Positions 3,908 through 64,000 of a stretch of 64,000 nucleotides of DNA are shown piece by piece. A model generated the notes under the pieces. That model was given only the letters and a program-made list of their open reading frames with translations. It was not told the DNA's origin and made no database searches. The position numbers and the translations under genes were made by a program. Source of the DNA: Amphiscolops sp. MND2022. Taxonomy: Eukaryota. Position 1 is the stretch's first letter. Each line of letters starts with the position of its first letter. Location: the NCBI GenBank assembly GCA_964187785.1, contig OZ076409.1, positions 75,270,001-75,334,000 of the forward strand, in the 5' to 3' direction.

Positions 3908-3976
3908 TCAACGCCCCATAGTTCTTATCAACGCCCCCCGTCCGTGGGCATGCCGAGGCATGCCCTTCGACGACGT
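3908..3976 (+). other. 3' terminal block: 2x TCAACGCC, then GGGCATGCC-GA-GGCATGCCC palindrome, then TTCGACGACG (representative; in all intact A and B units)
   Basis: Nearly invariant across otherwise unalignable A and B bodies. The palindrome is at 3946-3965, and lies ~35-55 bp before the CTAG depending on the unit. Confidence 0.9.
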
Positions 3977-4006
3977 GCACCAAAATATATTCGAGCGCGG
4001 TAGCCG

Positions 4007-4013
4007 CTAGGTG
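4007..4013 (+). other. Junction / putative recombination or nicking site CTAG|GTG (representative of 47)
   Basis: CTRGGTG occurs at every intact unit boundary, and all four unit indels map to it. Confidence 0.85.
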
Positions 4014-7840: not shown

Positions 7841-8899
7841 GTGGTCGGGTGTTTTACCTTTACAGAGTAGTGCGAGGCCGGGTAGGGTCCCGTGACGAGC
7901 TTGAAGAATAGCCTGCTAAAAATATACATGTTGGGGGGGGGGTCTACGGAGACGATCTCGAAAATGAACCGTTAGAATTTATTCAAACTTTGCATGCGGA
8001 CATAGAATCAAAATGTAAGAACTTTTTCCTACTGGCACTTTTCGCTCCATACCCTGTGACGGAAGTTATGAGCAAATGTATGTCGAAATCACCCATTTTT
8101 CGCATCTTTTCAGTCGCTGCTCCTCAGCCATTGGAGCCAATAGGCCGAAACTTTTTGTGTGAGGTACAAATGAAGTGGGCTACAAGATGGCCAAAAATTT
8201 TTGGCCAGGTCCTAATACATCGGGAAATATGATAGAAAATATACACCAAAAAAGGTGATTTTTTGACACTTTTTATCATGACTTCCGAAGTGCCCAATGG
8301 AATAGGTAGTGCCTATGGATAAAAATGAATGGTTTTATGTTTAATCGAAAGAGGAACAAATTTTGGTTTTTTTGGCCAAAAAAAAGTTCTACAAAAGTTC
8401 TACCAAAATTCGAAAAATTTAGAATTATTCCAAAAAAAAGGTTTTTTCGTCTTTTTTGATGTTTTTTCACATTTTGAGGTCAAAAACGAGGTACCCGAGC
8501 ACTTACACTGACTTTTTAGGGGAATTTGACACATTTAATTTTTATTTTTGGTTAATGATTACACTTTTAAAGTTTTAATCCCAAATTACTGCAATCTTTT
8601 CTCAGTTGTTGGAATTCTATGTTTGTTGGTAAATGACATGTAGAAAGATCGCCGATGTTCCGGGAGAACGCAAAGCGTTTCGGAGGAAGATTGGCGACAA
8701 ACGATAAAAGTCTGTGCAACTTATGTGCTTCCAATGAGGTGCTTGGTAGAATTATCAAGATGAAAAAATAACTTTTTTGAGGTAGTTTGTTGTGAAATGA
8801 AAACGATTAAAGTTTACAATTTTAAGTTGCACCAACTTCAGTTTCAATCAAGTATTGTCTGAATAGGCCTTACTGGTAGTTGGTACCTGCCTCCACTGG
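7841..8899 (+). mobile_element. Family C unit C1 (1059 bp)
   Basis: Starts GTGGTCGGG, has GGGTAGGGTCC 39 bp in, ends GCCTCCACTGG, and lacks the SphI block. Second copy at 55774-56833. Confidence 0.75.
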
Positions 8900-35800: not shown

Positions 35801-35819
35801 CCATAACGCGTTAGCCTAG
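8900..35819 (+). mobile_element. Run of 21 family B units (1262-1311 bp) of intermixed subfamilies
   Basis: 5' types: B1 (GTGCCGG..., most units), B2 (GTGGCCGTGTC; 26864, 28149), B3 (GTGGCCGGAAATT; 8900, 11460, 15325), B4 (body CACAGCTCCGTTGGAAC; 17886, 33271). Unit 11460-12745 is precisely absent in copy 2. Confidence 0.8.
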
Positions 35820-40508: not shown

Positions 40509-43500
40509 GTGGCCGTGTCTTTTCGACGTGCTTTTGCATTGAGGAGTGGGTAGGGCCCCGCGACGACCTAGAAGAATTGGATGCTCACCGAAACGTGCAG
40601 AATTCTACGAGATCTCATAGTTTGAGCCATACGATTTTTCTGAAATTTGGCATGTGGCCTGGAATTGGTGAGTAGGTAAAACGTGTAGGAGGTGATTTTT
40701 CCCAAATTCCACTGTGAGACGAGATATGGGCAAATAACGGTCCCAAAAATGGCAAAAATGCACTTTTTTCAAGTTTGTCAGCCCATATCTCGTTCCCAGG
40801 TGCCCGGAGCGGGACGCGTTAAGCTGATTATAAACTCTAGGGTGCTGAGGCTGTACGGTGAACTTGGGCCCGTTCCGATCCGACTTGTAGTCTTGGAGAA
40901 ATAACGGTATTTTTGGGGAACCTTTTCTAACGGTCCAGCTTATCTTTGCCATTTTTTCGAAAATGTACTCGCCTAAAGGCCTCCCCCTGGCCGAATTTAC
41001 TCCCAGCAAAACCATTTGGCCCTAAATACGGAGTTTCAGCGTTCCAGCATTCCCGGGCGAAAAGTTGTGGGACTTGGAAAATTTTCAAAAATTTTCAAAA
41101 AATTTTTTTTTCGTTTTCCGGGCCCCCAATGAAGGGGAAACGACCCCCCAACCAGTATTTTGAGTGAATTCATGTGGAAAGCCCTTGTTTTGACGAGAAA
41201 AATACCGTTTAGAACATCTTTTTATCTTGACTCAACGTTGACTTATGACGTTTTGAATGTGATGTAAGGATGTAGGAGGCATGTGATAAGTTGATGTTTT
41301 GAGTCTTTATCTCATATGAAAGCGGTTGAGATGCAAGCTGTCCTGCTCAAAACGTCTTTCGTTGTAATTTTCCAGTGCACCAATACCCTTTGGTGTCATA
41401 TAAACATACTTTTTGTCGATATATTAACAATTTTAATGTATTTATTCCAATTTTTATTATCTTATAACTCAAAACAGTTGAGTACATTTCATCTCCCTTT
41501 CGGGGGAGATGAGAATGTACTCGCTAAAGACCTAGCGCCATGACCAAAAGTTTGAAACCCACGTTTTTTATCTTCTTACAGACTTGTTTTTGTATTTTTT
41601 CGGAATTTTTTAAAAATTAATATACTTGAAATACATTACTTGACTTTACTACTACAACCCACCTCCAACGACAACGCCCCCCTGCTTGCATCAACGCCCA
41701 CCGTCCGTGGGCATGCCGAGGCATGCCCTTCGACGACGTATGCCAAATGCCCAGTGCCACGCAGTCATTATCGCTAGGTGCCGGGATTTCTATTCGATAA
41801 AGTATGTGGCGCGCCTTGGGTAGGGTCCCTTGCGCGCTCTTGGGTATGGTGTTCACCAGCTAGGAAACAGGGGTCGATTTTTCGGGATCTCCTAAACTAG
41901 CCACACGATTTGGCTGAAATTTGGCACACGTACTCCCCTCGGCACGGTGAAGATGATTTCCTACTGACGTTTTTCCCGCAAAATTTTTTTTGTTGTCCAA
42001 AATAACGGTTTTTGGGGTAAAATTTTGAATTTTTTTTAAATTTTATCTTATATCTCGCCACGGGTTTACGCTAGCGCTTCAGAACCTTGCTAAAGAAAGT
42101 TTGCAAACTGTCTCAGGAATGCTGTGTGAAAATTTCAGCTCAATCGGACTTAAACTCGGGGAGATATAGAGTTTTTCCGGAGCGGGGGGGTTTCATTTTT
42201 CTAACGGTCCAGCTTATCTTTGCCATTTTTTCGAAAATGCACTCGCCTAAAGGCCTCCCCTGGCCGGTTTTATTCCCAGCAAAACCATTTGGCCCTAAAT
42301 ACGGAGTTTCAGCGTTCCAGCATTCCCGGGCGAAAAGTTGTGGGACTTAGAAAAGTTCAAAAATTTTCAAAAAATTTTTTTTCCGTTATTTGGGCCCCCA
42401 AAGTGGGGGAAAAGACCCCCCAACCAGTAAGGCAAGTGAATGCATGTGCAAAGCCCTTGTTTAGAGGAGAAAAATGCCGTTTAGAACGTCTTTTTATCTT
42501 GGCTCAATGTTGACTTATGACGTTTTGAAGGTGATGTTTGGAGGTGTAAAGCACGTGAAAAGTAAACGTTATGAGTATTTATCTGATCTGAAAGCCATTG
42601 AGATGCAACCTGTTTTGCTCAAAACGTAATTCATATCAGTTTGGTAGTCAATCAACACCCTTTGTTGTCATTTGACATACTTTTTTTGTTGATATAATAA
42701 AAAATTTCGTGTATTTATTCATTTTTTTCTCATCAAATAACTTGAAACAGTTGAGTACATTCCATCCCCCCTTCACGGGGGAGATGAGAATGTACTCGCA
42801 GAAAGCCCCGAACTACGGCCCTTACCTTCCTGAGCTACGCAGTATAAAGATTGCATATTGGTTCCGACATTTTGATAGAGTTATATCTTGGTAATCTGTC
42901 TGGGTATGCAGAAAAACCAGCACGTGCTTTTTTATACCAAGTTGCTCACAACGACATTTATTTTATATCAACGCCCCCATATTTATCAACGCCCCCCGTC
43001 CGTGGGCATGCCGAGGCATGCCCTTCGACGACGTATACCAAGATATGTTCGAGCGCGTTAGCCTAGGTGGCCGGAAATTTTTTTTTCAGCAAAATCTTTG
43101 CCATTGGGGGAGGGGCCCCGGATGGCCAGTAGTACGGGATAGCTTCCTACCAAATCCAGATGGAAAAAACGTGATTTTGGAAACTAGCCGTCAGAATTTG
43201 CTCAAATTTTGCATACGGCTTCCTATAACAATCCTAAGAACTAATCCCTACTGGCATTTTGCCCGAAAAACGCAAAAAGTTGGTCAAAATCTTAGTTTTT
43301 TGGTCAAAAAATGGCGTTTTTTCGAAAAAAAAATTTTTCAGAGACAATTACTCGTAACTGGTTCACCCAGCGCAAAAACGCCTAGCTGATTTATTGTTGG
43401 GCACTTCATGAGGAACACGTATACAAATTTTCGTTCAGATCGGAAAAAAAAAGACTAAGTATTAGCCGGAATTCGGACGCATTGTTTCGCAAATTTTTGA

Positions 43501-45635
43501 AAACCTAGTCTATCTCTGCCGTTTTTTGCCCAGATTTTTTTCCAGGTCCTCTCCTAAAGGCCTCCCCTGGCCGGTTTACTTCCCAGAAAAACCATTTGGC
43601 CCTAAATACGGAGTTTCAGCGTTCTAGCATTCCCGGGCGAAAAGATGTGGGACTTAGAAAAAATTCAAAATTTTTCAAAATTTTTTTTTTCGTTTTCCGG
43701 CCCCCCAATGAAGGGGAACGACCCCCCAACGAGGATTTTTGGTGAATTCACGTGGAAAGGCCTTGTTTTGTGGAGAAAATTGCCGTTTAGAGCGACTTTT
43801 TATCTTAACTTGACGTTGACCTCTGTCGTTTTGAATTTGATATTAGTATGTGTTGAGCATGTGAAAAGTTGATGATTTCAGTTGTTCTCTCGTGTTCAAG
43901 CCATTGAGATACAAGCGGTAGTGATCAAAATGTGATTTATCGCAATTTGGTGGTGCTTTTGGTGTATTTTGATTCTTTTAAATAAAAAGTTGTTCTTTAT
44001 ATATTTGGTGTATTGATTCAAATTAACAAGAAACCGTTGAGTACATTTCATCTCCCCCCTTGTGGGGGAGATGAGGATGTACCCGCTAAATGACACGCAC
44101 AATGGCCCACTTTTACTTTTATGTGACGTTTTCTAGGCTTTTGCGCAAGCCCACTAATATTTAGACTGGTTTCCTTTTCTTTTACTCCAAAATTTTCCGT
44201 ACTAACCACCTTACGCACCACCAGCTCAACGTAACATCTGTAACGTCAACGCCACACACTCTCACTAACGCCCACCGTCCGTGGGCATGCCGAGGCATGC
44301 CCTTCGACGACGTATGCCAAATAGCGCCACAGGGCGCAAACTTGTCCGCTAGGTGGCCGGAAATTTTTTTTTTCAGCAAAATCTTTGCCATTGGGGGAGG
44401 GGCCCCGGATGGCCAGTAGTACGGCATAGCTCCCTACGGAATCCAGGCGGAAAAAACGTGATTTTGGAAACTAGCCGTCAGAATTTGCTCAAATTTTGCA
44501 TACGGCTTCCTATAACAATCCTAAGAACTAATCCCTACTGGCATTTTGCCCAAAAAACGCAAAAAGTTGGTCAAAATCTTAGTTTTTTGGTCAAAAAATG
44601 GCGTTTTTTCGAAAAAAATTTTTTTCAGAGACAATTACTCGTAACTGGTTCACCCAGCGCAAAAACGCCTAGCTGATTTATTGTTGGGCACTTCATGAGG
44701 AGTGCGTATACAAACTTTCGTCCAAATCGGATGAAAGTTGATTGAGAAATAACAGAAAATTTGAGGCATTTTTTTGGAAATTTTTGAAATCCCAGTCTAT
44801 CTCTGCCGTTTTTTGCCCAGATTTTTTTCCAGACACTCTCCTAAAGACCTCCCCTGGCCGGTTTACCTCCCAGCAAAACCATTTGGCCCTAAATACGGAG
44901 TTTCAGCGTTCTAGCATTCCCGGGCGAAAAGTTGTGGGACTTAGAAAAAATTTTTGGAAACGCAAAATGTGTAAAGTCAACTTCAGGCCTCCCAAAGTCA
45001 AGAAACTTCCACACAACTAGTATTGCAAGTGAATGCATGTAGAAAGTACTCGAATAGACAAGGAAAATGGGCTATAGAACGACTCTGTAGCTTAACTTGA
45101 CGTTGACTTATGACATTTTGAGTGTGAGCGTCCTATAGGATTTTAATGTCAAAAATGAGATTTTGTAAGTCATGAGTCATCAAAAACTCATCGGAATACG
45201 TTCAATCATCCCCATAGCTGTTCAATCACCGTTGCTTAGTAGAGCAACGCCATTATATGTCTTTGGACCCATTTTAAAAATTTTCCTTACCGTCTTATTC
45301 GTCCGATATCACGAAACAGTTGAGTACATTCCATCTTCCCCCTTGTGGGGGAGATGAGAATGTACTCGCCAAAGACCTGATACAATGACCCATATTGGTT
45401 TTTATTTGACTTTTCTCACAATATTGCACACGGATAGCTGTGTTTGGTAAAAGTTTTCCTTTGCACCATGTCTCCAGAAGCAAAACCACTTCTTTAGCTT
45501 ACTACTTCTACTCAAACATCACTAACGTCAACGCCACATACTGGCATCAACGCCCACCGTCTGTGGGCATGCCGAGGCATGCCCTTCGACGACGTATGCC
45601 AAATAGCGCCGCAGGGCGCCCCCAATTTCCGCTAG
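40509..45635 (+). mobile_element. Run of 4 family B units (40509 B2, 41778 B1, 43067 B3, 44353 B3)
   Basis: Junctions at 41777, 43066, 44352 and 45635; conserved core and hairpins present in each. Confidence 0.8.
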
Positions 45636-48600
45636 GTGCGGGGGGGTAACCCCAACTTTTTTCTTGGAGGAATCGGGTAGGGTCCTGATTCCGAGTTCAG
45701 TGCCGCCAGCTATCGTTAAAAACCTATACCTTTTAAACCCGATCTCGAGAACTAACCACGCCCCTTCTTTGATTTTTTGGCCCCCACTCACTTTTTGATA
45801 GTAGATCGCCCCCCACTGGGTTCCAAGTTGGGCAAAAATGGAGGTCAAGGGTAACGGGGACCGTTAAGGGGTAACTCAGGGGGTAAAATTTATTTTTTGC
45901 GTCATATCTTTTCCCCCCGTGGATTTAGCGCTTCCGGTCAGCAGACAAAACCTCATGTACGTGATACGGGGCCTCCGTAGGTCCAAACAAAATTTTTCTA
46001 TCATGCACCGTTACGGACTTGCCCCCCCCCCGGCCCAACCGTTATTTTGCCGGAAATTGCACTTTTTGACCGGGAAGGAGTCGTCTGAGCACGGAGTCGT
46101 TTGGTAATGTTTTGTAGTGCATCTGGAGACGTGTTGGGGGACATGTAGTTTGCCGGCCCCAGTTTACCCCCCGGACGGGAAATGACCGTTATGTGAGTTT
46201 TAAAATTACCCCCCTTCAATTTTCCCCGTTATTTCCGGTGTGAAGGAGTGGGAGTAGCGCGTCGGGTGCCATATATCAAAAGTAGGTTTAGACAAGGACC
46301 AACCGGAAACATGTGGTTTGGGACCCCCTGACCCAACCCGTTAGCCGTTATAAGGGTGATCGCCTCCTTTTTTTACACTCAAAACCGGAAAACGGGTATT
46401 GAGGGGTAAATATCTCGTGAACGCGTGGAGCAATCGTGTCCATCACTACTACAAGGTTTCATACCCATGATATGGTGCCTTCAGGGGGGCAAACAGATTA
46501 CCGCTATCTATCACCGTTACGGACTTGGCCCCCCAGCCCAACCGCTATGTGACCGGAAATGTCACTTTTTGAGCCCAAAGGGTCGATCGCAGCCTGGGAA
46601 CGTTAGGTAACTTATTGTAGTACTCATTGAGACGAGTTGGGGGACATAGTTTCAGTCACCCCCCGTTACCCCTTAGGACCGGAAATGACCGTTTTGTGAG
46701 TGAAATTGCAATTTTTATACTTTTTGAAAGGCATTTAGGTGCAGAAGGAGTGGTAATAGGTGCTTGGACACTATATAATGATAAGGAGGACGTGAGGCGA
46801 GCATTCGAAAAAAACCGTTATGTTGACCCCAAAGTCCCCCTGGTACCGTAAATGACCGGAAATGGTCAAATTTTGTGTTTAAAGGGTACAAATGTTTGGT
46901 GTTTTATGGATAACAGTACCTATTAGGTGTTTCGACGGTATGCAGTTGTGAACATAGTCATGAAACCTTGTGGGGGGTAACGGTATATAGCACCGGAAGT
47001 CCAAAACGTTGGAGACAGGATAAGTTTTTTGGTTTTAAAACGTCTTTCGGCCTACTTTTGTCGACTATTATGGTCTATTTTTGAAAAATAAAATTTTTCC
47101 ATATAGTTTCAGAGACTCCGAAACCTCAACCAACATAACCGTTACCTTATGATAGCCTTTCAAGTTGGCCTGGTGTCAACTTGGAAGGGCTATCCTTCAA
47201 AAATCATTAATCAAGTATGTTTTTGAGTATGTTTGTATTACTTTAGAATCAATTAGAGCTTAAAGGAAAGTTTGCCAACGACAAAAACTATGTCGTGATG
47301 ATTCCGTTATTAGAATACTTGTTAACAAAGTTTTAAAAACGTTGATTTTTTACATATCAAATGTGTCCTAAATGCCAGAAAACCTCTTTACCAAACAAAT
47401 GGTATTGATTGAATTGTATATAACAGCTAATAAAAGTTCAAACTGAATATTACGTTTCATTTTGGAAGCTGAAACGTCATTTTATAGTTTCATTAACGTC
47501 AACGCCACATACTTTACATCAACGCCCACCGTCCGTAGGCATGCCGAGGCATGCCTTTCGACGACGTATACCAAATTCCTTTAACACAACACCCCCGAGC
47601 GCGGTAGCCGCTAGGTGCGGGGGGGTAACCCCAACTTTTTTCTTGGAGGAATCGGGTAGGGTCCTGATTCCGAGTTCAGTGCCGCCAGCTATCGTTAAAA
47701 ACCCATACCTTTTAAACCCGATCTCGGGAACTAACCACGCCCCTTCTTTAATTTTTTGGCCCCCACTCACTTTTTGAGAGTAGATCGCCCCCCACTGGGT
47801 TCCAAGTTGGGCAAAAATGGAGGTCATGGGTAACGGGGACCGTTAAGGGGTAACTCAGGGGGTAAAATTTATTTTTTGCGTCATATCTTTTCCCCCCGTG
47901 GATTTAGCGCTTCCGGTCAGCAGACAAAACCTCATGTACGTGATAAGGGGCCTCCGTAGGTCCAAACAAAATTTTTCTATCATGCACCGTTACGGACTTG
48001 CCCCCCCGGCCCAACCGTTATTTTGCCGGAAATTGCCTTTTTTGACAGGAAAGGAGTCGTCTGAGCACGGAGTCGCTTGGTAATGTTTTGTAGTGCATCT
48101 GGAGACGTGTTGGGGGACATGTAGTTTGCCGACCCCAGTTTACCCCTCGGACGGGAAATGACCGTTATGTGAGTTTTAAAAATGCCCCCCTTCAATTTTC
48201 CCCGCAATTTCCGGTGTGAAGGAGTGGGAGTAGGGTGTCGGGTGCCATATATCAAAAGTAGGTTTAGACAAGGACCAACCGGAAACATGTGGTTTCGGAC
48301 CCCCTGACCCAACCCGTTAGCCGCTATTAGGGTGATCGCCTCCTTTTTTTGCTGTTAAAACCGGAAAACGGGCATTGAGGGGTAAATATCTCGTGAACGC
48401 GTGGAGCAATCGTGTCCATCACTACTACAAGGTTTCATACCCATGATATGGTGCCTTCAGGGGGGCAAACAGATTACCGCTATCTATCACCGTTACCGAC
48501 TTGGCCCCCCAGCCTAACCGCTATGTGACCGGAAATTGCACTTTTTGAGCCCAAAGGGTCGATCCTAGCCGGGCAACGATAGGTAACATATTGTAGTACT

Positions 48601-49608
48601 CATTGAGACGAGTTGGGGGATCTAGTTTCAGTCACCCCCGTTACCCCTTGAGACCGGAAATGACCGTTATGTGAGTAGAATTGCAATTTTTATACCTTTT
48701 GAAGGGCATTTAGAAGCGGAAGGAATGGTAATAGGTGCTTGGACACTATATGATGTAATGGAGGTCGTGAGGAGAGCATTCGGAAGTAACCGTTACGTTG
48801 ACCCCAAAGTCCCCCTGGTACCGTTAACAACCGGAAATGGCCAGATTTTGTGTTTGTAGGGTACAAATGTTTGGTATTTTATGGATAAAAGTACCTGGAA
48901 GGTGTTTTAAAGGCCTCCAGAAGTGAACATAGTCAAGAAACTTTGTGGGGGGTAACGGTATATAGCACCGGAAGTCCAAACCGTTAGTTACAGAATAGGT
49001 TTTTTGGTTTCAAAATGTCTTTAGGCGTAGTTTTGTGGGTGGAATCGTCATAATATCAACTAATACGGACTTTTTTCGGAAATAAAATTTTTTCACATTA
49101 GTTTCAGGGACCTCCAATGTTTCAGTCAACATAACCGTTACATTTTGATAGCCTTTCAAGTTGGCCTGGTGTCAACTTGGAAGGGCTATCCTTCTAAAAT
49201 CGTTAATCAAGAGTGTTTTTGGGTAGGTATATGTTGCATTAGTACCAATTAGAGCTTCATCAACAGTTTGCCAACGGCAAAAACGATGTCGTGATAATTC
49301 CGTTATAAGAATATTAATTAACAAATTGTTTACAAAGTTGATTTTTTTCATTTAAAATGTGTCCTAATGCCACCAAATTGAATAAAATAATAAATGGTAT
49401 TGACTAAAACTAAATAACATTGAAAAAGAACATCAACATTTTTATTAGGTCTCATTATGGAAGCTGAAACCTCACGTTTTAACTTGATTAACGTCAACGC
49501 CACATACTTTACATCAACGCCCACCGTCTGTGGGCATGCCGAGGCATGCCCTTCGACGACGTATACCAAACAACCTCCATATCTACACCCACCCGCGGTA
49601 GCAGCTAG
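45636..49608 (+). mobile_element. Two family A units (45636-47614, 1979 bp; 47615-49608, 1994 bp)
   Basis: Both start GTGCGGGGGGGTAACCCC; the second matches 743-2736 at offset 46872. Confidence 0.7.
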
Positions 49609-52600
49609 GTGCCGGGATTTCTATTCGATAAAGTATGTGGCGCGCCTTGGGTAGGGTCCCTTGCGCGCTCTTGGGTATGGTGTTCACCAGCTAGGAAACA
49701 GGGGTCGATTTTTCGGGATCTCCTAAACTAGCCACACGATTTGGCTGAAATTTGGCACACGTACTCCCCTCGGCACGGTGAAGATGATTTCCTACTGACA
49801 TTTTTCCCGCAAAATTTTTTTTGTTGTCCAAAATAACGGTTTTTGGGGTAAAATTTTGAATTTTTTTTAAATTTTATCTTATATCTCGCCACGGGTTCAC
49901 GCTAGCGCTTCAAAACCCTGCTAAAGAAAGCTTGCAAACTGTCTCAGGAATGCGGTGTGAAATTTTCAGCTCAATCGGACTTAAACTCGGGGAGATATAG
50001 AGTTTTTCCGGAGCGGGGGGGTTTCATTTTTCTAACGGTCCAGCTTATCTTTGCCATTTTTTCGAAAATGCACTCGCCTAAAGGCCTCCCCTGGCCGGTT
50101 TTATTCCCAGCAAAACCATTTGGCCCTAAATACGGAGTTTCAGCGTTCCAGCATTCCCGGGCGAAAAGTTGTGGGACTTAGAAAAGTTCAAAAAATTTCA
50201 AAAAAATTTTTTTCCGTTTTCCGCCCTCCCCCCCTAGGGGAAAAGACCCCCCAACCAGTAATTTGAGTGAATTCATGTGGAAAGGCCATGTTTAGAGGAG
50301 AAAAATACCGTTTAGATCGTCTTTTTATCTTAACTCAACGTTGACTTATGACGTTTTGAAGGTGATGTTTGGAGGTGTAAAGCACGTGAATAGTAAACGT
50401 TATGAGTATTTATCTGATCTGAAAGCCATTGAGATGCAATATGGTTTGCTCAAAACGTAATTCATGGCAGTTTGGCAATCAATCAACACCCTTTGTTGTC
50501 GTTTGACAGACTTTTTTGTTGTTATAATAAAAAATTTTGTGTATTTATTCATTTTTTTCTCATCAAATAACTTGAAACAGTTGAGTACATTCCATCCCCC
50601 CCTTCCGGGGGAGATGAGAATGTACTCGCAAAAAGCACCGAACTACGACCCTTACCTTCCCGAGCTACGCAGTATAAGGACTACATATTGGTTCCGACAT
50701 TTTCATAGAGTTAAATCTTGGTAATCTGTCTGGATATGCAGAAAAACCAGCACGTGCTTTTTTATACCAAGTTGCTCACAACGACAATTATTTTATATCA
50801 ACGCCCCCATATTTATCAACGCCCCCCGTCCGTGGGCATGCCGAGGCATGCCCTTCGACGACGTATACCAAGATATGTTCGAGCGCGTTAGCCTAGGTGG
50901 CCGTGTCTTTTCGACGTGCTTTTGCATTGAGGAGTGGGTAGGGCCCCGCGACGACCTAGAAGAATTGGATGCTCACCGAAACGTGCAGAATTCTACGAGA
51001 TCTCATAGTTTGAGCCATACGATTTTTCTGAAATTTGGCATGTGGCCTGGAATTGGTGAGTAGGTAAAACGTGTAGAAGGTAATTTTTCCCAAATTCCAT
51101 TGTGAGAGGAGATATGGGCAAATAACGGACCCAAAATTGGGGAAAATGCACTTTTTTCAAGTTTGTCAGCCAATATCTCATTTCCAGGTGCCCGTAGCGT
51201 TCCGCACGTGGACGTCAATATTGCTCAACGCTGTTGGAAGAGTGCGTGGACAAATTTTGGTTCAAATCGGACTGAAACTTGGCGAGAAATTAACGGTTTT
51301 TTGGGCGTTTCCGGGGTAAATTTTTTAACGGTCCAGCTTATCTTTGCCATTTTTTCGAAAATGTACATGCCTAAAGGCCTCCCCCTGGCCGAATTTACTC
51401 CCAGCAAACCCATTTGGCCCTAAATACGGAGTTTCAGCTGTCCAGCATTTCCGGGCGAAAAGTTGTGGGACTTTGAAAAATTTCAAAATTTTTCAAAAAT
51501 TTTTTTTTCCGTTTTCCGGGCCCCCCAATGAAGGGGAACGACCCCCCAACCAGTATTTTGAGTAATTTCATGAGGAAAGCCCATGTTTAGAGGAGAAAAT
51601 GCCGCTTAGAACGTCTTTTTATCTTAACTTGATGTTGACTTATGATCTTTTGAGTAGCGTATAACACGTGATCACAGTAGTGAAAACCCTAATTTTCAAA
51701 AATTTTCAAACCATAACGCATGAAAAGAACCTGGAAAAGGTTCCGATGGGTCAGTTGGGATGTCTGAAGCATGTGTACATTCCCGTAGTGTATAGCGGAT
51801 GTATTTGGGACTTATTAGAAATTGTGATATGTTTTATACAAGTCTTTGTTTCTCTTAGAATCTTATGCAGTTGAGTACATTCCATCTCCCTCTCAGGGGA
51901 GATGTGAATGTACGTTTGCCAAATGCCTTGTATATTTCACATCTTTGATGGATTCAAATAACTAAACAAGTGTGATTTGCGTTTGCCGAACCACTGCGAC
52001 AAAACATCCTAAATCTATAGCGAGTATGTATGGTTTTTGTCTTTAGTGTTTCGTCTTGTGTAGCCGACTTCCACATCCAAATATCAACGCCCGCCGTCCG
52101 TAGGCATGCCGAGGCATGCCTTTCGACGACGTATGCCAAATGCCCAATGCCACGCTGTCATTATCGCTAGGTGCCCGGATTTCTATTCATTAAAGTATGT
52201 TGCGCGTGTGGGTAGGGCCCCGTGGCGCGCTCTTGTGTCCCTGTTCTAAAATCTGTAATTTCCGGCAGCATTCTGAGCGATTTTCTAAACTATCCATACG
52301 ATTTGGCTAAAATTTGGCACACGTACCCCCCTCGGCACGGTGAAGATGATTTCCTACTGACGTTTTTCCCGCAAAATTTTTTTTGTTGTCCAAAATAACG
52401 GTTTTTGGGGTAAAATTTTGAACTTTTTTTAAATTTCATCTGATATCTCGCCACGGGTTTACGCTAGCGCTTCAAAACCCTGCTAAAGAAAGCTTGCAAA
52501 CTGTCTCAGGAATGCGGTGTGAAATTTTCAGCTCAATCGGACTTAAACTCAGGGAGATATAGCGTTTTTCCGGAGCGGGGGGGTTTCATTTTTCTAACGG

Positions 52601-54726
52601 TCCAGCTTATCTTTGCCATTTTTTCGAAAATGCACTCGTCTAAAGGACTCCCCTGGCCGGTTTTATTCCCAGGAAAACCATTTGGCCCTAAATACGGAGT
52701 TTCAGCGTTCCAGCATTTCCGGGCGAAAAGTTGTGGGACTTAGAAAAGTTCAAAAGTTTTCAAAAAATTTTTTTCCGTTTTCCGCCTTCCCCCCCTAGGG
52801 GAAAAGACCCCCCAACCAGTAATTTGAGTGAATTCATGTGGAAAGGCCATGTTTAGAGGAGAAAAATACCGTTTAGATCGTCTTTTTATCTTTATTCAAC
52901 GTTGACTTATGACGTTTTGAAGGTGATGTTTGGAGGTGTGAAGCACGTGAAAAGTAAACGTTATGAGTATTTATCTGATCTGAAAGCCATTGAGATGCAA
53001 CCTGTTTTGCTCAAAACGTAATTCATATCAGTTTGGTAGTCAATCAACACCCTTTGTTGTCATTTGACATCTTTTTTTGTTGATATAAGAAAAAATTTTG
53101 TGTATTTATTCATTTTTTTCTCATCAAATAACTTGAAACAGTTGAGTACATTCCATCCCCCCTTCACGGGGGAGATGAGAATGTACTCGCAAAAAGCCCC
53201 GAACTACGGCCCTTACCTTCCTGAGCTACGCAGTATAAAGATTGCATATTGGTTCCGACATTTTGATAGAGTTATATCTTGGTAATCTGTCTGGGTATGC
53301 AGAAAAACAAGCACGTGCTTTTTTATACCAAGTTGCTCACAACGACATTTATTTTATATCAACGCCCCCATATTTATCAACGCCCCCCGTCCGTGGGCAT
53401 GCCGAGGCATGCCCTTCGACGACGTATACCAAGATATACTTCGAGCGCGTTAGCCTAGGTGCCGGGATTTCTATTCGTTCGAGTATGTGGCGCGTGTGGG
53501 TAGGGCCCCTGGCGCGCTCTTGTGTTTCGGGTTTTCCTACTCCTAAACCGCGTTCAGATTTTCGGGATCTCGTAAACTAGCCATACGATTTGGCTGAAAT
53601 TTGGCACACGTACCCCCCTCGGCACGGTGAAGATGATTCCCTACTGACGTTTTGCCCGCTAAACATTTTTTGTTGACCAAAATAACGGTTTTTGGTGGAA
53701 AATTTTCAACTTTTTTTAAAATTCATCTTATATCTCGCCCCAGGTTTACGCTAGCGCTTCAAAACCTTGCTGACGAAAGTTTGCAAACTGTCTCAGGAAT
53801 GCGGTGTGAAATTTTCAGCTCAATCGGACTTAAACTCGAGGAGATATAGCGTTTTTCCGGAGCGGGGGGGTTTCATTTTTCTAACGGTCCAGCGTATCTT
53901 TGCCATTTTTTCGAAAATGCACTCGCCTAAAGGCCTCCCCTGGCCGGTTTTACTCCCAAAAAAACCATTTGGCCCTAAATACGGGGTTTCAGCGTTCTAG
54001 CATTTTCGGGCGAAAAGTTGTGGGACTTAGAATATTTCAAAAATTTTCAAAAAAATTTTTTTCCGTTATTTGGGCCCCCAATGTGGGGGAAAGGACCCCC
54101 CAACCAGTATTTTGAGTGAATGCATGTGCAAAGCGCTTGTTTAGAGGAGAAAAATGTCGTTTAGAACGTCTTTTTATCTTTACTCAACGTTGACTTTTGT
54201 CGTTTTGAAGGTGACCGTTAGATATGGAAAATTGATGTTTTGAGTATTTATCTCATCTGAAAGCCATTGAGATACAACATGTTTTGCTCAAAACGTGTTT
54301 CATTGCAGTATCGCTGTCCATTAACACCCTTTGGTGACTTTTGACATATTTTTTTTATATATAATATCACTTTTTTGTGCATTTTTTCGTTTTTTTCTCA
54401 TCTAATATCTTGAAACAGTTGAGTACATTCCATCTCCCTTCCCGGGGGAGATGAGAATGTACTCGCTAAAGGCCATGAACTACGGCCTATACCTTCCCGA
54501 GCTACGCACTACAATTATTGCATATGCATGCAGACCTTTTGATACATTTTTATCTTTATAGATTGACTGGACAAACTGAAAACTCTGTCCTGATTATACA
54601 AAGTTACCTCACAACGACACATGTTTACGTCAACGCTCCATACTTTACATCAACGCCCACCGTCCGTGGGCATGCCGAGGCATGCCCTTCGACGACGTAT
54701 AGCCACTCAAACGCGGTAGCCGCTAG
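49609..54726 (+). mobile_element. Run of 4 family B units (49609, 50897, 52171, 53459)
   Basis: 49609, 50897 and 53459 match 4011, 5299 and 6573. Unit 52171-53458 has no counterpart at this position in copy 1. Confidence 0.8.
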
Positions 54727-55773
54727 GTGGTCCGGGGTAGTTCCCCACATTATTTAGGGCGAGGCCGGGGAGGGTCCCGATGCCGAGCTTAATTTTCGCG
54801 TGTCGAACTATATCATCTAGCACACCAGTCAAAAAACGGCGATTTTCGAATTGAACCGATAAAACTTCTTTAAACTTTGCATGTGTACTTATCTTGCCGA
54901 TGTACAAATGATGTTCTGCTGGTCAAACATGACCCTATTACTTGGCGGGAAGTTATGAGCAAATGATCGGTTTTTTCACCCTGTTTCGGTACTTTTTCGC
55001 TGCGATATCTGCAGCATGTGGATACAATTGGCTGATACTTTGCATGCGAGGCATAAATGTTGTCAGGTGTTTGCATGCCAAAAATCATTAGGCTGGTGAC
55101 ACTAGGCTGGGAGATAGAAGTAGAAAAAGTAGTGGAAAATTGTGAATTCTCCGGTCATCGCGTCATAACTTCCGAACTTTTATACAGATGATGTTTTCTT
55201 TAGCGGTAGCAGTACAGTCGATGTGTTTTCAACATCGCGTGGTCAGGATAAAAAATAAAAAATAAAAAAGTTCTACAAAAGTTCTACAAAAATTCTAAAA
55301 ATTGCGAATTTTTTCAAAAAAAAATTTTTTTCGGATTCCATTGTATTTTTATACCAGGAATTCAAAAATCACATTATTTATCGTGTCAACGGCGCCAAAA
55401 TGGGTTTATTTTTAATATTGACCGCTTTCACCAGCTTGATATACCAGTTTCAGTAAGTATTTGAAAAATACTCAGGGTTGAGGCAAATGCATAAGTAGCA
55501 CGATTTTAAAACGTAATTTTATTTGTCACCGGTGTTCCGAGGGATGCACAGCAGCACGCAGGAACAACGGTGACCCGGAAGAAAGGCTGTAGATACTTGT
55601 TACGACCGAAGGCAGTCACTGTTTAGTTTTGTTCGACATGATTATGTACGTCGTTGCGATGTGCATCGGCAAAAATTCACATCAGTGACCCCAAAGTGGA
55701 ACAAGTTATACATGAATTGAGAACAGGCAGTACCGTTCGGCCCCCTGGTAATTGGTAGCTTTGCCTCCACTGG
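54727..55773 (+). mobile_element. Family C unit C2 (1047 bp), single copy in the window
   Basis: Starts GTGGTCCGGGG and ends GCCTCCACTGG. Shares AAAAAAGTTCTACAAAAGTTCTAC, AAACTTTGCATG and CGGAAGTTATGAGCAAATG with C1 but is otherwise strongly diverged. Absent from copy 1. Confidence 0.8.
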
Positions 55774-56833
55774 GTGGTCGGGTGTTTTACCTTTACAGAG
55801 TAGTGCGAGGCCGGGTAGGGTCCCGTGACGAGCTTGAAGAATAGCCTGCTAAAAATATACATGTTGGGGGGGGGGGTCTACGGAGACGATCTCGAAAATG
55901 AACCGTTAGAATTTATTCAAACTTTGCATGCGGACATAGAATCAAAATGTAAGAACTTTTTCCTACTGGCACTTTTCGCTCCATACCCTGTGACGGAAGT
56001 TATGAGCAAATGTATGTCGAAATCACCCATTTTTCGCATCTTTTCAGTCGCTGCTCCTCAGCCATTGGAGCCAATAGGCCGAAACTTTTTGTGTGAGGTA
56101 CAAATGAAGTGGGCTACAAGATGGCCAAAAATTTTTGGCCAGGTCCTAATACATCGGGAAATATGATAGAAAATATACACCAAAAAAGGTGATTTTTTGA
56201 CACTTTTTATCATGACTTCCGAAGTGCCCAATGGAATAGGTAGTGCCTATGGATAAAAATGAATGGTTTTATGTTTAATCGAAAGAGGAACAAATTTTGG
56301 TTTTTTTGGCCAAAAAAAAGTTCTACAAAAGTTCTACCAAAATTCGAAAAATTTAGAATTATTCCAAAAAAAAGGTTTTTTCGTCTTTTTTGATGTTTTT
56401 TCACATTTTGAGGTCAAAAACGAGGTACCCGAGCACTTACACTGACTTTTTAGGGGAATTTGACACATTTAATTTTTATTTTTGGTTAATGATTACACTT
56501 TTAAAGTTTTAATCCCAAATTACTGCAATCTTTTCTCAGTTGTTGGAATTCTATGTTTGTTGGTAAATGACATGTAGAAAGATCGCCGATGTTCCGGGAG
56601 AACGCAAAGCGTTTCGGAGGAAGATTGGCGACAAACGATAAAAGTCTGTGCAACTTATGTGCTTCCAATGAGGTGCTTGGTAGAATTATCAAGATGAAAA
56701 AATAACTTTTTTGAGGTAGTTTGTTGTGAAATGAAAACGATTAAAGTTTACAATTTTAAGTTGCACCAACTTCAGTTTCAATCAAGTATTGTCTGAATAG
56801 GCCTTACTGGTAGTTGGTACCTGCCTCCACTGG
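55774..56833 (+). mobile_element. Family C unit C1, second copy (1060 bp)
   Basis: Matches 7841-8899 with one extra G in the poly-G run. Confidence 0.75.
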
Positions 56834-59800
56834 GTGGCCGGAAATTTTTTTTTCAGCAAAATCTTTGCCATTGGGGGAGGGGCCCCGGATGGCCAGTAGT
56901 ACGGGATAGCTTCCTACCAAATCCAGGCGGAAAAAACGTGATTTCGGAAACTAGCCGTCAGAATTTGCTCAAATTTTGCATACGGCTTCCTATGACAATC
57001 CTAAGAACTAATCCCTACTGGCATTTTGCCCAAAAAACGCAAAAAGTTGGTCAAAATCTTAGTTTTTTGGTCAAAAAATGGCGTTTTTTCGAAAAAAATT
57101 TTTTTCAGAGACAATTACTCGTAACTGGTTCACCCAGCGCAAAAACGCCTAGCTGATTTATTGTTGGGCATTTCATGAGAAGTGCGTATACAAATTTTCG
57201 TCCAGATCGGAAACAAATTGACTAAGTATTAGCCGGAATTCGGACGCATTTTTTCGCAAATTTTTGAAAACCTAGTCTATCTCTGCCGTTTTTTGCCCAG
57301 ATTTTTTTCCAGGTCCTCTCCTAAAGGCCTCCCCTGGCCGGTTTACTTCCCAGAAAAACCATTTGGCCCTAAATACGGAGTTTCAGCGTTCTAGCATTCC
57401 CGGGCGAAAAGATGTGGGACTTAGAAAAAATTCAAAATTTTTCAAAAAATTTTTTTTTCGTTTTCCGGCCCCCCAATGAAGGGGAACGACCCCCCAACGA
57501 GGATTTTTGGTGAATTCACGTGGAAAGGCCTTGTTTTGTGGAGCAAATTGCCGTTTAGAGCGACTTTTTATCTTAACTTGACGTTGACCTCTGTCGTTTT
57601 GAATTTGATATTAGTATGTGTTGAGCATGTGAAAAGTTGATGATTTCAGTTGTTCTCTCGTGTTCAAGCCATTGAGATACAAGCGGTAGTGATCAAAATG
57701 TGATTTATCGCAATTTGGTGGTGCTTTTGGTGTATTTTGATTCTTTTAAATAAAAAGTTGTTCTTTATATATTTGGTGTATTGATTCAAATGAACAAGAA
57801 ACAGTTGAGTACATTTCATCTCCCCCCTTGTGGGGGAGATGAGGATGTACCCGCTAAATGACACGCACAATGGCCCAATTTTATTTTTATGCGACGTTTT
57901 CTAGGCTTTTGCGCAAGCCCACTAAAATTTAGACTGGTTTCCTTTTCTTTTACTCCAAAATTTTCCGTACTAACCACCTTACGCACCACCAGCTCAACGT
58001 AACATCTGTAACGTCAACGCCACACACTCTCACTAACGCCCACCGTCCGTGGGCATGCCGAGGCATGCCCTTCGACGACGTATGCCAAATAGCGCCACAG
58101 GGCGCAAACTTGTCCGCTAGGTGCCGGGATTTCCATTCGATAAGGAATTCTGCGCGTGTGGGTAGGGCCCCTGGCGCGCTCCTGTGTTTTCGGTTTTCCT
58201 ACTCCTAAATAGACCCCCTGAATTCCGGGATCTCCCAAACTATCCATACGATTTGGCTGAAATTTGGCACACGTACCCCCCTCGGCACGGTGAAGATGAT
58301 TTCCTACTGACGTTTTTCCCGCTAAACATTTTTTGTTGACCAAAATAACGGTTTTTGGGGTAAAATTTTGAACTTTTTTTAAATTTCATCTTATATCTCG
58401 CCACGGGTACACGCTAGCGCTTCCAAACCTTGCTGACGAAAGTTTGCAAACTGTCTCAGGAATGCTGTGTGAAATTTTCAGCTCAATCGGACTTAAACTC
58501 GAGGAGATATAGCGTTTTCCCGGAGCGGGGGGGTTTCAATTTTCTAACGGTCCAGCTTATCTTTGCCATTTTTTCGAAAATGCACTCGCCTAAAGGCCTC
58601 CCCTGGCCGGTTTTATTCCCAACAAAACCATTTGGCCCTAAATACGGAGTTTCAGCGTTCCAGCATTCCCGGGCGAAAAGTTGTGGGACTTAGAAAAGTT
58701 CAAAAATTTTCAAAAAAAAATTTTTCCGTTATTTGGGCCCTCAAAGTGGGGGAAAAGACCCCCCAACCAGTAAAGCAAGTGAATGCATGTGGAAAGCCCT
58801 TGTTTAGACGAGAAAAATGCCGTCTAGAACGTCTTTTTATCTTAACTTGACATTGACTTTTGTCGTTTTGAAGGTGACCGTTAGATACGGAAAATTGATG
58901 TTTTGAGTATTTATCCCATCTGAAAGCCATTGAGATACAACATGTTTTGCTCAAAACGTGTTTCATTGCAGTTTCGCTGTCCATTATCACCCTTTGGTGT
59001 CTTTTCACGTAATTTTCGTTTCTATAATAACAATTTTTTTGTGTATTTATTCATTTTATTCTCATCAAATAACTTGAAACAGTTGAGTACATTCCATCTC
59101 CCTTCCCGGGGGAGATGAGAATGTACTCGCTAAAGGTCAGGAACTACGGTCTATATCTTCCACAACACAAATGGGATTGCAAATGGTTTCAGTTTGTCGC
59201 AGAAAACTTCTTTTTGCCCTCTGTGACTCGACAAAATGAACGTTTCTTACTTACTTTGAAACTCAGCATACCACAACTCATCTCTAACGTCAGCGCCCCC
59301 CTACTTGCATCAACGCCCACCGTCCGTGGGCATGCCGAGGCATGCCCTTCGACGACGTATACCAAGATATACCTGGAGCGCGGTAGCCGCTAGGTGCCGG
59401 GATTTCCATTCGATAAGGAATTCTGCGCGTGTGGGTAGGGCCCCTGGCGCGCTCCTGTGTTTTCGGTTTTCCTACTCCAAATTCACACCCCAGTTATCTC
59501 CGATCTCGTAAACTATCCATACGATTTGGCTGAAATTTGGCACACGTACCCCCCTCGGCACGGTGAAGATGATTTCCTACTGACGTTTTTCCCGCTAAAC
59601 ATTTTTTGTTGACCAAAATAACGGTTTTTGGGGTAAAATTTTCAACTTTTTTTAAATTTTATCTTATATCTCGCCACGGGTACACGCTAGCGCTTCCAAA
59701 CCTTGCTGACGAAAGTTTGCAAACTGTCTCAGGACTGCTGTGTGAAATTTTCAGCTCAATCGGACTTAAACTCGAGGAGATATAGCGTTTTTCCGGAGCG

Positions 59801-62800
59801 GGGGGGTTTCATTTTTCTAACGGTCCAGCTTATCTTTGCCATTTTTTCGAAAATGCACTCGCCTAAAGGCCTCCCCTGGCCGGTTTTATTCCCAGCAAAA
59901 CCATTTGGCCCTAAATACGGAGTTTCAGCGTTCCAGCATTCCCGGGCGAAAAGTTGTGGGACTTAGAAAATTTCAAAAATTTTCAAAAATTTTTTTTCCG
60001 TTATTTGGGCCCCCAAAGTGGGGGAAAAGACCCCCCAACCAGTAAAGCAAGTGAATGCATGTGCAAAGCCCTTGTTTAGAGGAGAAAAATGCCGTTTAGA
60101 ACGTCTTTTTATCTTGGCTCAACGTTGACTTATGACGTTTTGAAGGTGATGTTTGGAGGTGTAAATCACGTGAATAGTAAACGTTATGAGTATTTATCTG
60201 ATCTGAAAGCCATTGAGATGCAATATGGTTTGCTCAAAACGTAATTCATGGCAGTTTGGCAATCAATCAACACCCTTTGTTGTCGTTTGACATACTTTTT
60301 TGTTGTTATAATAAAAATTTTGTGTATTTGTTCATTTTTTTCTCATCAAATAACTTGAAACAGTTGAGTACATTCCATCCCCCCTTCCGGGGGAGATGAG
60401 AATGTACTCGCAAAAAGCAGCGAATTACGGCCCTTACCTTCCCGAGCTACGCAGTATAAGGATTACATATTGGTTCCGACATTTTCATAGAGTTAAATCT
60501 TGGTAATCTGTCTGGATATGCAGAAAAACCAGCACGTGCTTTTTTATACCAAGTTGCTTACAACGACAATTATTTTATATCAACGCCCCCATATTTATCA
60601 ACGCCCCCCGTCAGTGGGCATGCCGAGGCATGCCCTTCGACGACGTATACCAAGATATACATCGAGCGCGTTAGCCTAGGTGCCGGTGTTTTTTTACACA
60701 ATGGCGGATGTTGCGCGGTTGGGGAGGGTCCCTGACGCGCTCCCGGGATTTCGGATTTTTTAACCTTTACGTACCCATCAAAAATTTTGGGATCTCGAAA
60801 ACTAGCCGTACGATTTGGCTGAAATTTGGCACACGTACCCCCCTCGGCACGGTGAAGATGATTCCCTACTGACGTTTTGCTCGCTAAACATTTTTTGTTG
60901 ACCAAAATAACGGTTTTTGGGGTAAATTTTTCAACTTTTTTTAAATTTTATCTTATATCTCGCCACGGGTTTACGCTAGCGCTTCCAAACCTTGCTGACG
61001 AAACCTTGCAAACTGTCTTAGGAATGCGGTGTGAAATTTTCAGCTCAATCGGACTCAAACTCGGGGAGATATAGCGTTTTTCCGGAGCGGGGGGGTTTCA
61101 TTTTTCTAACGGTCCAGCTTATCTTTGCCATTTTTTCGAAAATGCACTCGCCTAAAAGCCTCCCCTGGCCGGTTTTATTCCCAGCAAAACCATTTGGCCC
61201 TAAATACGGAGTTTCAGCGTTCCAGCATTTCCGGGCGAAAAGTTGTGGGACTTAGAAAATTTCAAAAATTTTCAAAAAATTTTTTTTCCGTTATTTGGGC
61301 CCCCAAAGTGGGGGAAAAGACCCCCCAACCAGTAAAGCAAGTGAATGCATGTGCAAAGCCCTTGTTTGGACGAGAAAAATTCTGTTTAGAACGTCTTTTT
61401 ATCTTGGCTCAACGTTGACTTATGACGTTTTGAAGGTGATGTTTGGAGGTGTAAAGCAAGTGAATAGTAAACGTTATGAGTATTTATCTGATCTGAAAGC
61501 CATTGAGATGCAATATGGTTTGCTCAAAACGTAATTCATTGCAGTTTGGCAATCAATCAACACCCTTTGTTGTCGTTTGACATACTTTTTTGTTGTTATA
61601 ATAAAAAATTTTGTGTATTTATTCATTTTTTTCTCATCAAATAACTTGGAACAGTTGAGTACATTCCATCCCCCCCTTCCGGGGGAGATGAGAATGTACT
61701 CGCAAAAAGCACCGAACTACGGCCCTTACCTTCCCGAGCTACGCAGTATAAGGATTACATATTGGTTCCGACGTTTTCATAGAGTTATATCTTGGTAATC
61801 TGTCTGGATATGCCGAAAAATCAGCACGTGCCTTTTAATACCAAGTTGCTCACAACGACAATTATTTTATATCAACGCCCCCATATTTATCAACGCCCCC
61901 CGTCCGTGGGCATGCCGAGGCATGCCCTTCGACGACCCGCACCAAAATATGCGTTAGCGCGGTAGCTGCTAGGTGGCCGGAAATTTTTTTTTCATCAAAA
62001 TCTTTGCCATTGGGGGAGGGGCCCCGGATGGCCAGTAGTACGGGATAGCTTCCTACCAAATCCAGATGGAAAAAACGTGATTTTGGAAACTAGCCGTCAG
62101 AATTTGCTCAAATTTTGCATACGGCTTCCTATAACAATCCTAAGAACTAATCCCTACTGGCATTTTGCCCAAAAAACGCAAAAAGTTGGTCATAATCTTA
62201 GTTTTTTGGTCAAAAAATGGCGTTTTTTCGAAAAATTTTTTTTTCAGAGACAATTACTCGTAACTGGTTCACCCAGCGCAAAAACGCCTAGCTGATTTAT
62301 TGTTGGGCACTTCATGAGGAGTGCGTATACAAATTTTCGTCCAGATCGGAAAAAAAATGACTAAGTATTAGCCGGAATTCGGACGCATTTTTTCGCAAAT
62401 TTTTGAAAACCTAGTCTATCTCTGCCGTTTTTTGCCCAGATTTTTTTCTAGACCCTCTCCTAAAGGCCTCCCCTGGCCGGATTACCTCCCAGCAAAACCA
62501 TTTGGCCCTAAATACGAAGTTTCAGCGTTCTAGCATTCTCGGGCGAAAAGTTGTGGGACTTAGAAAAATTTTTTTGAAAACGCAAAATGTGTAAAGTCAA
62601 CTTCAGGCCTCCCAAAGTCAAGGAACTTCCACACAACTAGTATTGCAAGTGAATGCATGTGGAAAGTACTCGGATAGACGAGAAAAATGAGCTATTATAA
62701 ATCTCTGTAGCTTAACCTGACGTTGACTTATGACAATTTTAGTGTGAGCTTGCTATGTGAGAAAAAAATTCAAAATTGGAAATCGAAGCTAAGTCTCATC

Positions 62801-64000
62801 CAAAACTCATCGGAACACGTTCAATCCATCCCAGAGCGGTTTAATTCCAGCTATATAATGCAGCAACACTATTCAAGACCATTTGATCCACTTACATTAG
62901 TTTTGACACCGTATTATTCATCCGAGAGCACAAAACAGTTGAGTACATTCCATCTCCCTTTCGGGGGAGATGAGAATGTACTCGCTAAAGTCCAGGTACT
63001 ACAGCCCATATTTGCTTTTATGCGACGCTCTTATGCTAGTGCGCATACTTTTTAATCGTTTAACTGAATTTTCTTCTGTCTGCACTTTGACTTTGACTTG
63101 ACATATAGTGAACGTTTTGTCTTACAACTTACAAATGAGTAACGTCAACGCCCCATCCTTGCATCAACGCCCACCGTCCGTGGGCATGCCGAGGCATGCC
63201 CTTCGACGACGTATGCCAAGATATATCCCAAGCGCGGTAGCAGCTAGGTGCCGGGATTTCTATTCGATAAAGTATGTGGCGCGTGTGGGTAGGGTCCCTG
63301 GCGCGCTCTTGGGTATGGTGTTCACCAGCTAGGAAATAGGGGTCGATTTTTCGGGATCTCCTAAACTAGCCACACGATTTGGCTGAAATTTGGCACACGT
63401 ACTCCCCTCGGCACGGTGAAGATGATTTCCTACTGACGTTTTTCCCGCAAAATTTTTTTTGTTGTCCAAAATAACGGTTTTTGGGGTGAAATTTTGATTT
63501 TTTTTTAAATTTTATCTTATATCTCGCCACCGGTTTACGCTAGCGCTTCAAAACCCTGCTAAAGAAAGCTTGCAAACTGTCTCAGGAATGCTGTGTGAAA
63601 ATTTCAGCTCAATCGGACTTAAACTCAGGGAGATATAGCGTTTTTCCGGAGCGGGGGGGTTTCATTTTTCTAACGGTCCAGCTTATCTTAGCCATTTTTT
63701 CGAAAATGTACTCGCCTAAAGACCTCCCCTGGCCGGTTTTATTCCCAGCAAAACCATTTGGCCCTAAATACGGAGTTTCAGCGTTCCAGCATTCCCGGGC
63801 GAAAAGTTGTGGGACTTAGAAAAGTTCAAAAATTTTCAAAAAATTTTTTTTCCGTTTTCCGCCCTCCCCCCCGAGGGGAAAAGACCCCCAACCAGTAATT
63901 TGAGTGAATTCATGTGGAAAGGCCATGTTTAGAGGAGAAAAATCTCGTTTAAATCGTCTTTTTATCTTTATTCAACGTTGACTTATGACGTTTTAAAGGT
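56834..64000 (+). mobile_element. Run of 5 complete family B units plus a partial one (56834, 58121, 59394, 60680, 61973, 63248)
   Basis: Match units 8900, 10187, 12746, 14032, 15325 and 16600 of copy 1. Confidence 0.8.

Follow-up and report, generated by a model that had tools for sequence, protein, structure and literature searches.

The 64-kb window analysed here (the whole stretch of 64,000 nucleotides, positions 1 to 64000) consists almost entirely of repeated sequence, at 42.5% G+C and with a CpG observed/expected ratio of 1.02. The question that it raises is how a single kilobase of it, here referred to as unit C2, came to occur only once, while an exact empty site for it lies elsewhere in the same window. 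We set unit boundaries by cutting the window at CTRGGTG and obtained a head-to-tail array:

1..64000, + strand: whole array of 48 units (2 cut by the window ends) with 47 CTRG|GTG junctions, in a single orientation

All 47 junctions are on the + strand, 44 of them with CTAG and 3 with CTGG. RG|GTG is found at 47/47 junctions, and GTG forms the first bases of 47/47 units. The units can be divided into three classes: A (about 2.0 kb), B (1.26–1.31 kb, with several subtypes) and C (1.05–1.06 kb). Three ORFs of at least 120 aa are present in the window, with no Pfam match and no transposase, recombinase or integrase seen. The window holds no tRNA gene, and the part scanned against Rfam (45600–64000) gave no match.

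Whole-unit exchange at the junctions

Two large parts of the window are copies of one segment, and they differ by four whole units, each gained or lost at a junction:

1..17352, + strand: first copy of the duplicated segment
46873..64000, + strand: second copy of the duplicated segment
2737..4010, + strand: B unit in the first copy only; exchange window 24 bp
11460..12745, + strand: B unit in the first copy only; exchange window 7 bp
52171..53458, + strand: B unit in the second copy only; exchange window 9 bp
54727..55773, + strand: unit C2, 1047 bp, non-coding (longest stop-free frame 94 codons), in the second copy only; exchange window 7 bp

Each exchange window is the interval in which the crossover is bounded by sequence common to the extra unit and its neighbours. 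Across 14,792 shared bases, the two copies show one substitution and one base of difference in a G run (99.99% identical), so that the tally in 14.8 kb is four unit events against two small changes. The copies are offset by about 46.9 kb, which suggests either a higher-order repeat of about 34–36 units or alleles assembled in tandem.

The surroundings of C2 and the corresponding place in the other copy are as follows:

53459..54726, + strand: upstream B unit, the same as 6573–7840 (0 differences in 1268 bp)
54723..54729, + strand: left junction CTAG|GTG, whose CTAG comes from the upstream B unit and is retained at the empty site
55770..55776, + strand: right junction CTGG|GTG
55774..56833, + strand: unit C1, downstream neighbour of C2 and about 59% identical to it
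7841..8899, + strand: second copy of C1, differing from 55774–56833 by one base in a G run
7837..7843, + strand: empty site of C2, CTAG|GTG, in the other segment copy, exact at 7840/7841

In a self-BLAST at E<1e-5, the only stretches left uncovered were 54791–55263 and 55334–55766, both within C2, and 9 bp at 39581–39589, so C2 is the sole single-copy kilobase of the window, as the preliminary description had it. That description also stated that the removal of C2 leaves a perfect junction and that the exchange lies 3' of the R in CTRG. Both statements are borne out: the left neighbour shows no difference, C1 shows a single one, and the empty site is exact; moreover, the empty junction keeps CTAG whereas C2 ends in CTGG, which places the C2 exchange 3' of the R, inside 7 bp. 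Of the four events, that of C2 is the most telling, since C2 shares little homology with its neighbours and defines how far left the cut can lie; how far right, up to GTG, is defined by unit 11460–12745. If all four events share one common cut, it falls in the four bases G|GTG.

We compared these events with a null of homology-driven exchange, which chooses the junction among all in-register identical runs of at least 7 bp, weighted by length; this null is generous to short runs, and in its alignment the last window counts 6 bp instead of 7. Between 22 and 83 such runs, up to 102 bp long, were available per event, yet 4/4 events are at a junction. The junction share under the null is 0.025, 0.007, 0.034 and 0.010 for the individual events, with a product of about 6e-8. 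The probability remains low when C2 is left out, and the four exchanges left no hybrid unit. Moreover, among the 14 closest unit pairs (96–99.5% identical), no pair of left or right neighbours exceeds 90% identity, so the units move singly. That whole units of diverged families are gained or lost specifically at junctions is real and well supported.

Kinship and ends of the units

C2 and C1 are collinear, with a global identity of 59.4% (z = 17.7 against 200 shuffles) and block z-scores of 25.5, 19.6, 18.9, 2.2 and 5.3. Three B units and an A unit were compared with the first 210 bp of C2: z was 6.0, 1.4 and 1.6 for the B units and 5.4 for the A unit. C2 is a distant relative of the other units rather than a stranger. 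It had been introduced as a unique family; this label is too strong for a unit that is collinear with C1 and has 5' motifs common to A and B. The best block between C2 and C1 (55264–55333, 88.6% over 70 bp) is rich in A-tracts with a short tandem duplication, and a similar A/T-tract block is found in B units at about equal distance from the unit start.

Besides GTG, the 5' ends share a second motif, represented in C2 by the following:

54767..54777, + strand: GGGKAGGGBCC motif of C2, at +41

The motif was derived by aligning 16 unit starts, which match by construction, and its real test is the fixed spacing and the absence elsewhere. It occurs once per unit at +38 to +42 in 47/47 units, and nowhere else on either strand. 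The junction-plus-motif pattern has a mean of 0 in 100 shuffles. Seven minus-strand CTGGGTG sites, all copies of one site in one B subtype, are without the motif and hold no insertion. At the other end, no 5-mer is common to the last 150 nt across the 45 units scored (the hybrid unit described below and the two cut units excluded). Because GTG and the motif are universal and the 3' ends have no common 5-mer, the shared signal consists of CTRG to the left and, to the right, a longer end that is conserved. The preliminary view that one machinery handles different families is upheld in that C2 and three B units were exchanged at the same junction, with the second 5' motif in all units; it needs adjustment in that a common 5' end links the families as distant relatives, which makes the sharing less surprising.

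The 3' ends are of two kinds:

54668..54687, + strand: SphI palindrome with 9-bp arms, as in the 3' ends of A and B units
55745..55773, + strand: C-family 3' tail common to C1 and C2, ending CTGG, with no SphI palindrome and no significant hairpin

The SphI palindrome lies upstream of 44/47 junctions. The three junctions without it all follow C units and are all CTGG, in agreement with the earlier remark that C2 ends in CTGG and lacks this block. Its end is 40–59 nt before the junction in 42/45 full units scored, and it is absent from the three C units. In folding against shuffles, one A/B 3' end gave z = −2.07 and the C 3' ends +0.82 and +0.41; for a hairpin at the 5' motif, z was −1.4 to −1.6 in A and B, 0.04 in C2 and 0.26 in C1. 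A conserved covarying 5' hairpin was rejected as a candidate, with only a 3-bp stem common to 16 units and no compensatory change. What the units share is sequence, not a proven fold.

We tested 15 registers for terminal inverted repeats and found none; the mean terminal run did not exceed 1.24 bp, with 0 for C2. Likewise, C2 is not flanked by a duplication of CTAG, TAG or AG, with TAG/AG on its left against TGG/GG on its right. Base counts for symmetric arms at the junction show at most a CC/GG echo of variable spacing, and conservation to the left of CTRG is gone within about 3 nt. A guide tetranucleotide of IS200/IS605 style, sought by eye with the usual pairing rule, is present in C only and was rejected. 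An internal period near 160 bp in C units reached z of 3.6–3.7, which is under the shuffle threshold of 5.7–6.1. B units have a short tandem motif about 60–20 nt before the SphI palindrome (e.g. 40405–40440) and a second palindrome about 250 nt before the 3' end. A 12-base core that we presume to be the CTCF-binding consensus matches 3/47 junctions (11460, 28149 and 44353), the rest being near misses; this resemblance may be a coincidence.

Candidate mechanisms

The explanation that we prefer, tentatively and with somewhat less than even confidence, is that the units are Helitron-like rolling-circle (HUH) elements, themselves non-autonomous, and depend on an enzyme that targets the junctions between elements. 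All units would belong to one broad lineage, served in trans by an HUH enzyme encoded elsewhere in a probably eukaryotic genome, which would bind the conserved 5' end and nick within G|GTG. The + strand would then be peeled off up to the next CTRG, giving a one-unit circle whose joint is again CTRG|GTG. A joint between neighbours has the same anatomy as this circle joint and would thus be both origin and preferred target, so that new units would land between old ones and mixed arrays would grow. Scarless loss of a unit might proceed via reverse strand transfer or resolution at replication. C2 would be a member that has diverged and has a 3' end of its own; the same enzyme or a close relative would move it, and C2 and C1 could have been carried as a pair through read-through of the weak C 3' end. 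The scheme builds on the observed whole-unit changes at CTRG|GTG (four events, each a gain or a loss), the orientation and the 5' motif, and adds binding, nicking and the circle as inferred steps.

An HUH rolling-circle enzyme agrees with conservation on one side only, with ends of CTRR type, with strict polarity and with a joint that restores its own site. With the cut placed after CTRG, the CTAG and CTGG ends both match the Helitron 3' end, given as CTRR in the available part of PMC4067079. The units further resemble Helitron1 and Helraiser in an essential left end with a loose right end, in the lack of a clear target duplication and, for A and B, in a palindrome near the 3' end. The Helraiser circle joint puts CTAG directly against the left end (PMC4778049 and PMC4067079, in the parts available). 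Against this stand several differences. The units start with GTG (47/47) rather than TC; 4/4 empty sites are within G|GTG of an element junction rather than at A|T in AT-rich DNA; and the palindrome is 40–59 nt from the end, and absent in C, instead of a palindrome of 16–20 nt about 11 nt away. No hairpin about 11 nt from the end was found, and the 5' and 3' folds of C2 and C1 are near those of shuffles. No transposase was seen among the three ORFs of the window. From the sources as far as available, Helitrons are described as copy-and-paste elements, which also counts against this explanation, Helraiser prefers AT-rich targets in contrast to the GC-rich joint here (PMC4778049; PMC4067079), and Helitron tandems consist of copies of one element (10.1101/2021.06.02.446622), in contrast to the mixed families of this array.

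Other rolling-circle relatives were compared in the same way. According to the accessible parts of PMC4067079, PMC13085455 and PMC5148889, the Helitron2/Helentron/HINE/DINE-1 group likewise has non-coding units of 1–2 kb and structured motifs near both ends, and self-insertion is reported for Fusarium FoHeli. These elements differ in inserting at TT or T(T/C), where the junction bases here are G and G. An 11–15 bp subterminal inverted repeat common to both ends, another feature of the group, was not clearly seen here, although the two ends of a unit pair slightly better than permuted ends in 2/3 settings (see below). Internal motifs of the units presumably resemble those of HINE/DINE-1 elements. 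None of six unit motifs was found in 10 text supplements of the DINE-1 paper (PMC4067079). As far as the available part of PMC10288648 describes them, Replitron-1 and Replitron-N1 also have a left end right after RG and a fixed orientation, and Replitron-N1 is a non-autonomous unit of about 1 kb with a palindrome near its right end. In contrast to Replitron-1, C2 is flanked by AG/GG with no duplication including RG, its empty site is exact where the right end of Replitron-1 is fuzzy, and the units lack a 6-bp repeat at both termini; that part of the paper does not mention arrays, and the signatures of Replitron-1 may be peculiar to it. Compared on these sequence features, the units are not members of Helitron1, Helitron2/Helentron, Replitron-1 or a DDE family, because they show no 5' TC or A|T target, no TT target, no RG duplication or fuzzy end, and no terminal inverted repeat, respectively. 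By analogy, they may work like Helitron- or Crypton-type non-autonomous elements in an integron-like array.

In bacterial integron arrays, cassettes of different families lie in the same orientation and are exchanged singly at a short conserved crossover point. The array here differs in that its units are without genes, no integrase gene is in the window, and no attC-type hairpin is common to the ends; also, the four events are spread along the array rather than at one end, the array ends being outside the window.

A Crypton-like tyrosine recombinase is the foremost alternative, possible in our estimate but on the unlikely side. It would exchange double-stranded unit circles via a 4-bp GGTG core at both ends, with the +40 motif as an arm-type binding site, and the array would be an integron array without cargo genes. 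Cryptons as described match the scarless gain and loss, the fixed orientation and the shared core of 4 bp, and scarless loss is explained more naturally than by an HUH enzyme. In the available part of PMC3212892, Cryptons lack terminal inverted repeats but carry terminal direct repeats of 4 or 6 bp and have non-autonomous derivatives, with circular intermediates proposed; the units here similarly lack inverted repeats and have a possible short direct repeat, GGTG, at every unit. The typical Crypton site there consists of two inverted arms of 11–13 bp around 6–8 bp, while the window common to the four events is only 4 bp, no symmetric arms are present, and no matching left arm is seen since conservation fades within about 3 nt of CTRG. 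GGTG is absent from the terminal repeats in the part of supplement 1 of that paper available, mixed arrays targeted at junctions are not described there, and no recombinase is in the window.

Host repair alone, that is unequal crossover, single-strand annealing or microhomology-mediated joining using the short junction sequence, is improbable. The 7 bp of microhomology at the C2 site speak for it, and ordinary rearrangement has taken place in the array (an A/B hybrid at 37795–40508, and mosaic units); nevertheless, with 22–83 alternative runs per event, 4/4 exchanges at a junction and no hybrids among them are hardly expected (about 6e-8). A different enzyme we consider equally improbable, either a serine recombinase with a 2-bp core in GGTG or a tyrosine-recombinase retroelement acting on non-autonomous partners. 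The core of serine recombinases is 2 bp and fits inside the 4-bp window; symmetric arms are missing, as are tRNA genes in the window and Rfam matches in 45600–64000. A DDE transposase that works by cut-and-paste, using a fixed target and excising precisely in the manner of piggyBac or Kolobok, is quite improbable. Papers on piggyBac-related CMITEs and KolobokP report precise excision and tandem arrays (PMC2872659 and PMC9587614, in the parts available), and a duplication of up to 4 bp (GGTG) is compatible with the data, but no terminal inverted repeat exists in any of the 15 registers, and the differing flanks of C2 (TAG to its left, TGG to its right) rule out a TAG duplication. Finally, an assembly error or two alleles placed in tandem is very improbable as the source of the duplication and the unit differences, despite the 99.99% identity of the segments: we infer that mis-joins arise in long identical repeats rather than 7-bp overlaps and that an assembler cannot invent a 1-kb unit with correct ends, and with alleles the four differences would be real polymorphisms, which leaves the conclusion unchanged.

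We also searched outside the window, in metagenomic, viral and prokaryotic collections, which cover eukaryotic genomes poorly. The SphI 20-mer was found at 10 loci in metagenomes, the C junction 16-mer at 45 loci in viral contigs, and the junction-plus-motif pattern at 3 viral and 57 prokaryotic loci; the scan pattern comprised CTAG and gaps of 30–36 only and catches 32/47 junctions of the window, so it is incomplete. In these 115 loci, no match to a unit was longer than 39 bp and no locus had two occurrences of the pattern; a blastn of 53459–56833 against phages gave no match. Taken with the non-coding repeats of kilobase size, the lack of prokaryotic and viral relatives in these scans makes a eukaryotic source probable. 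The literature within reach, much of it available only in part, holds no description of a mixed-family array edited at element joints; Repbase, Dfam and most subscription journals were beyond reach, and the elements may already be named in Repbase or Dfam.

The usual explanations for change in tandem arrays are unequal crossover, slippage and the rolling-circle copying of a single unit. Here, units as distant as 59% identity and with different 3' ends were gained or lost exactly at one joint, which implies an enzyme acting on the array. That they represent an undescribed class of eukaryotic mobile elements, which uses the joint of resident elements as its attachment site and forms precisely edited integron-like arrays of diverged non-coding families, is a serious possibility, though a doubtful one. 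If so, the enzyme would be a natural scarless and orientation-specific integrase with a site of about 55 bp, and array editing would here be more frequent than point mutation (4 against 2 in 14.8 kb). If confirmed, this would be a new way in which transposons give rise to satellite-like DNA; it would also mean a landing site where elements can accumulate without harm, and would yield a candidate for a scarless integrase. With CTRG|GTG and the motif at +40 as a signature, the genome can be searched directly for the autonomous partner.

Unit order and mosaic structure

Some units of the minor classes are neighbours:

45636..49608, + strand: adjacent pair of A units, 88.7% identical
35820..40508, + strand: second adjacent A pair, whose later member, 37795–40508, is an A/B deletion hybrid

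Adjacent A pairs had been reported before, and we count two independent ones because the pair at 1–2736 duplicates 45636–49608. C2 does stand directly before the other C type, as C1 starts at 55774, the next base after it. We analyzed the non-redundant order of 36 units with a test chosen post hoc, after the pattern had been seen. A-A and C-C adjacency together number 3 (p = 0.0022), C-C alone gives p = 0.056, and minor-type adjacency by 5' type is 4 (p = 0.0097). B-B neighbours have no excess of identity over chance (26 pairs, p = 0.18 and 0.53), and the extra unit at 11460 precedes a unit of different 5' type. The family-biased target choice put forward in the preliminary description is thus not established by this post hoc test. 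The order of like beside like may reflect target choice; it is accounted for just as well if two units moved jointly or if a local duplication took place long ago, and the same arrangement would result from an old tandem duplication after which one copy lost C2.

Pairing between the 5' and 3' ends of a unit is slightly above that of permuted ends in 2/3 settings (p = 0.00015, 0.0026 and 0.12), and weak in B and C units. It is strongest in the A units 47615–49608 and 35820–37794 (−11.7 and −13.9 kcal/mol, with −7.0 for C2), where the 5' start is rich in G and pairs with C-rich sequence just inside the 3' end of the same unit, an arrangement that resembles an asymmetric inverted repeat. Pairing across real junctions also exceeds that across permuted ones (p = 0.001–0.006), which probably reflects A-A and C-C adjacency again.

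In the hybrid 37795–40508, about 1790 bp of an A unit are fused to a B unit from B position 368; the join, near 39580–39590, carries the 9 unique bases and is the sole imprecise rearrangement seen. A units (e.g. 743–2736) contain an internal direct repeat about 504 bp apart with 70–74% identity, and a weaker period near 148 bp. Many units are mosaic along their length. In 5/12 profiled unit pairs, identity falls from 95–99% at the 5' end to 50–80% further 3', these pairs being among 45636–49608, 43067–45635 and 50897–52170 versus 28149–29429 and 61973–63247; such a gradient may point to exchange beginning at the 5' end. In two other profiled pairs, the differences are mostly within the first 160 bp.
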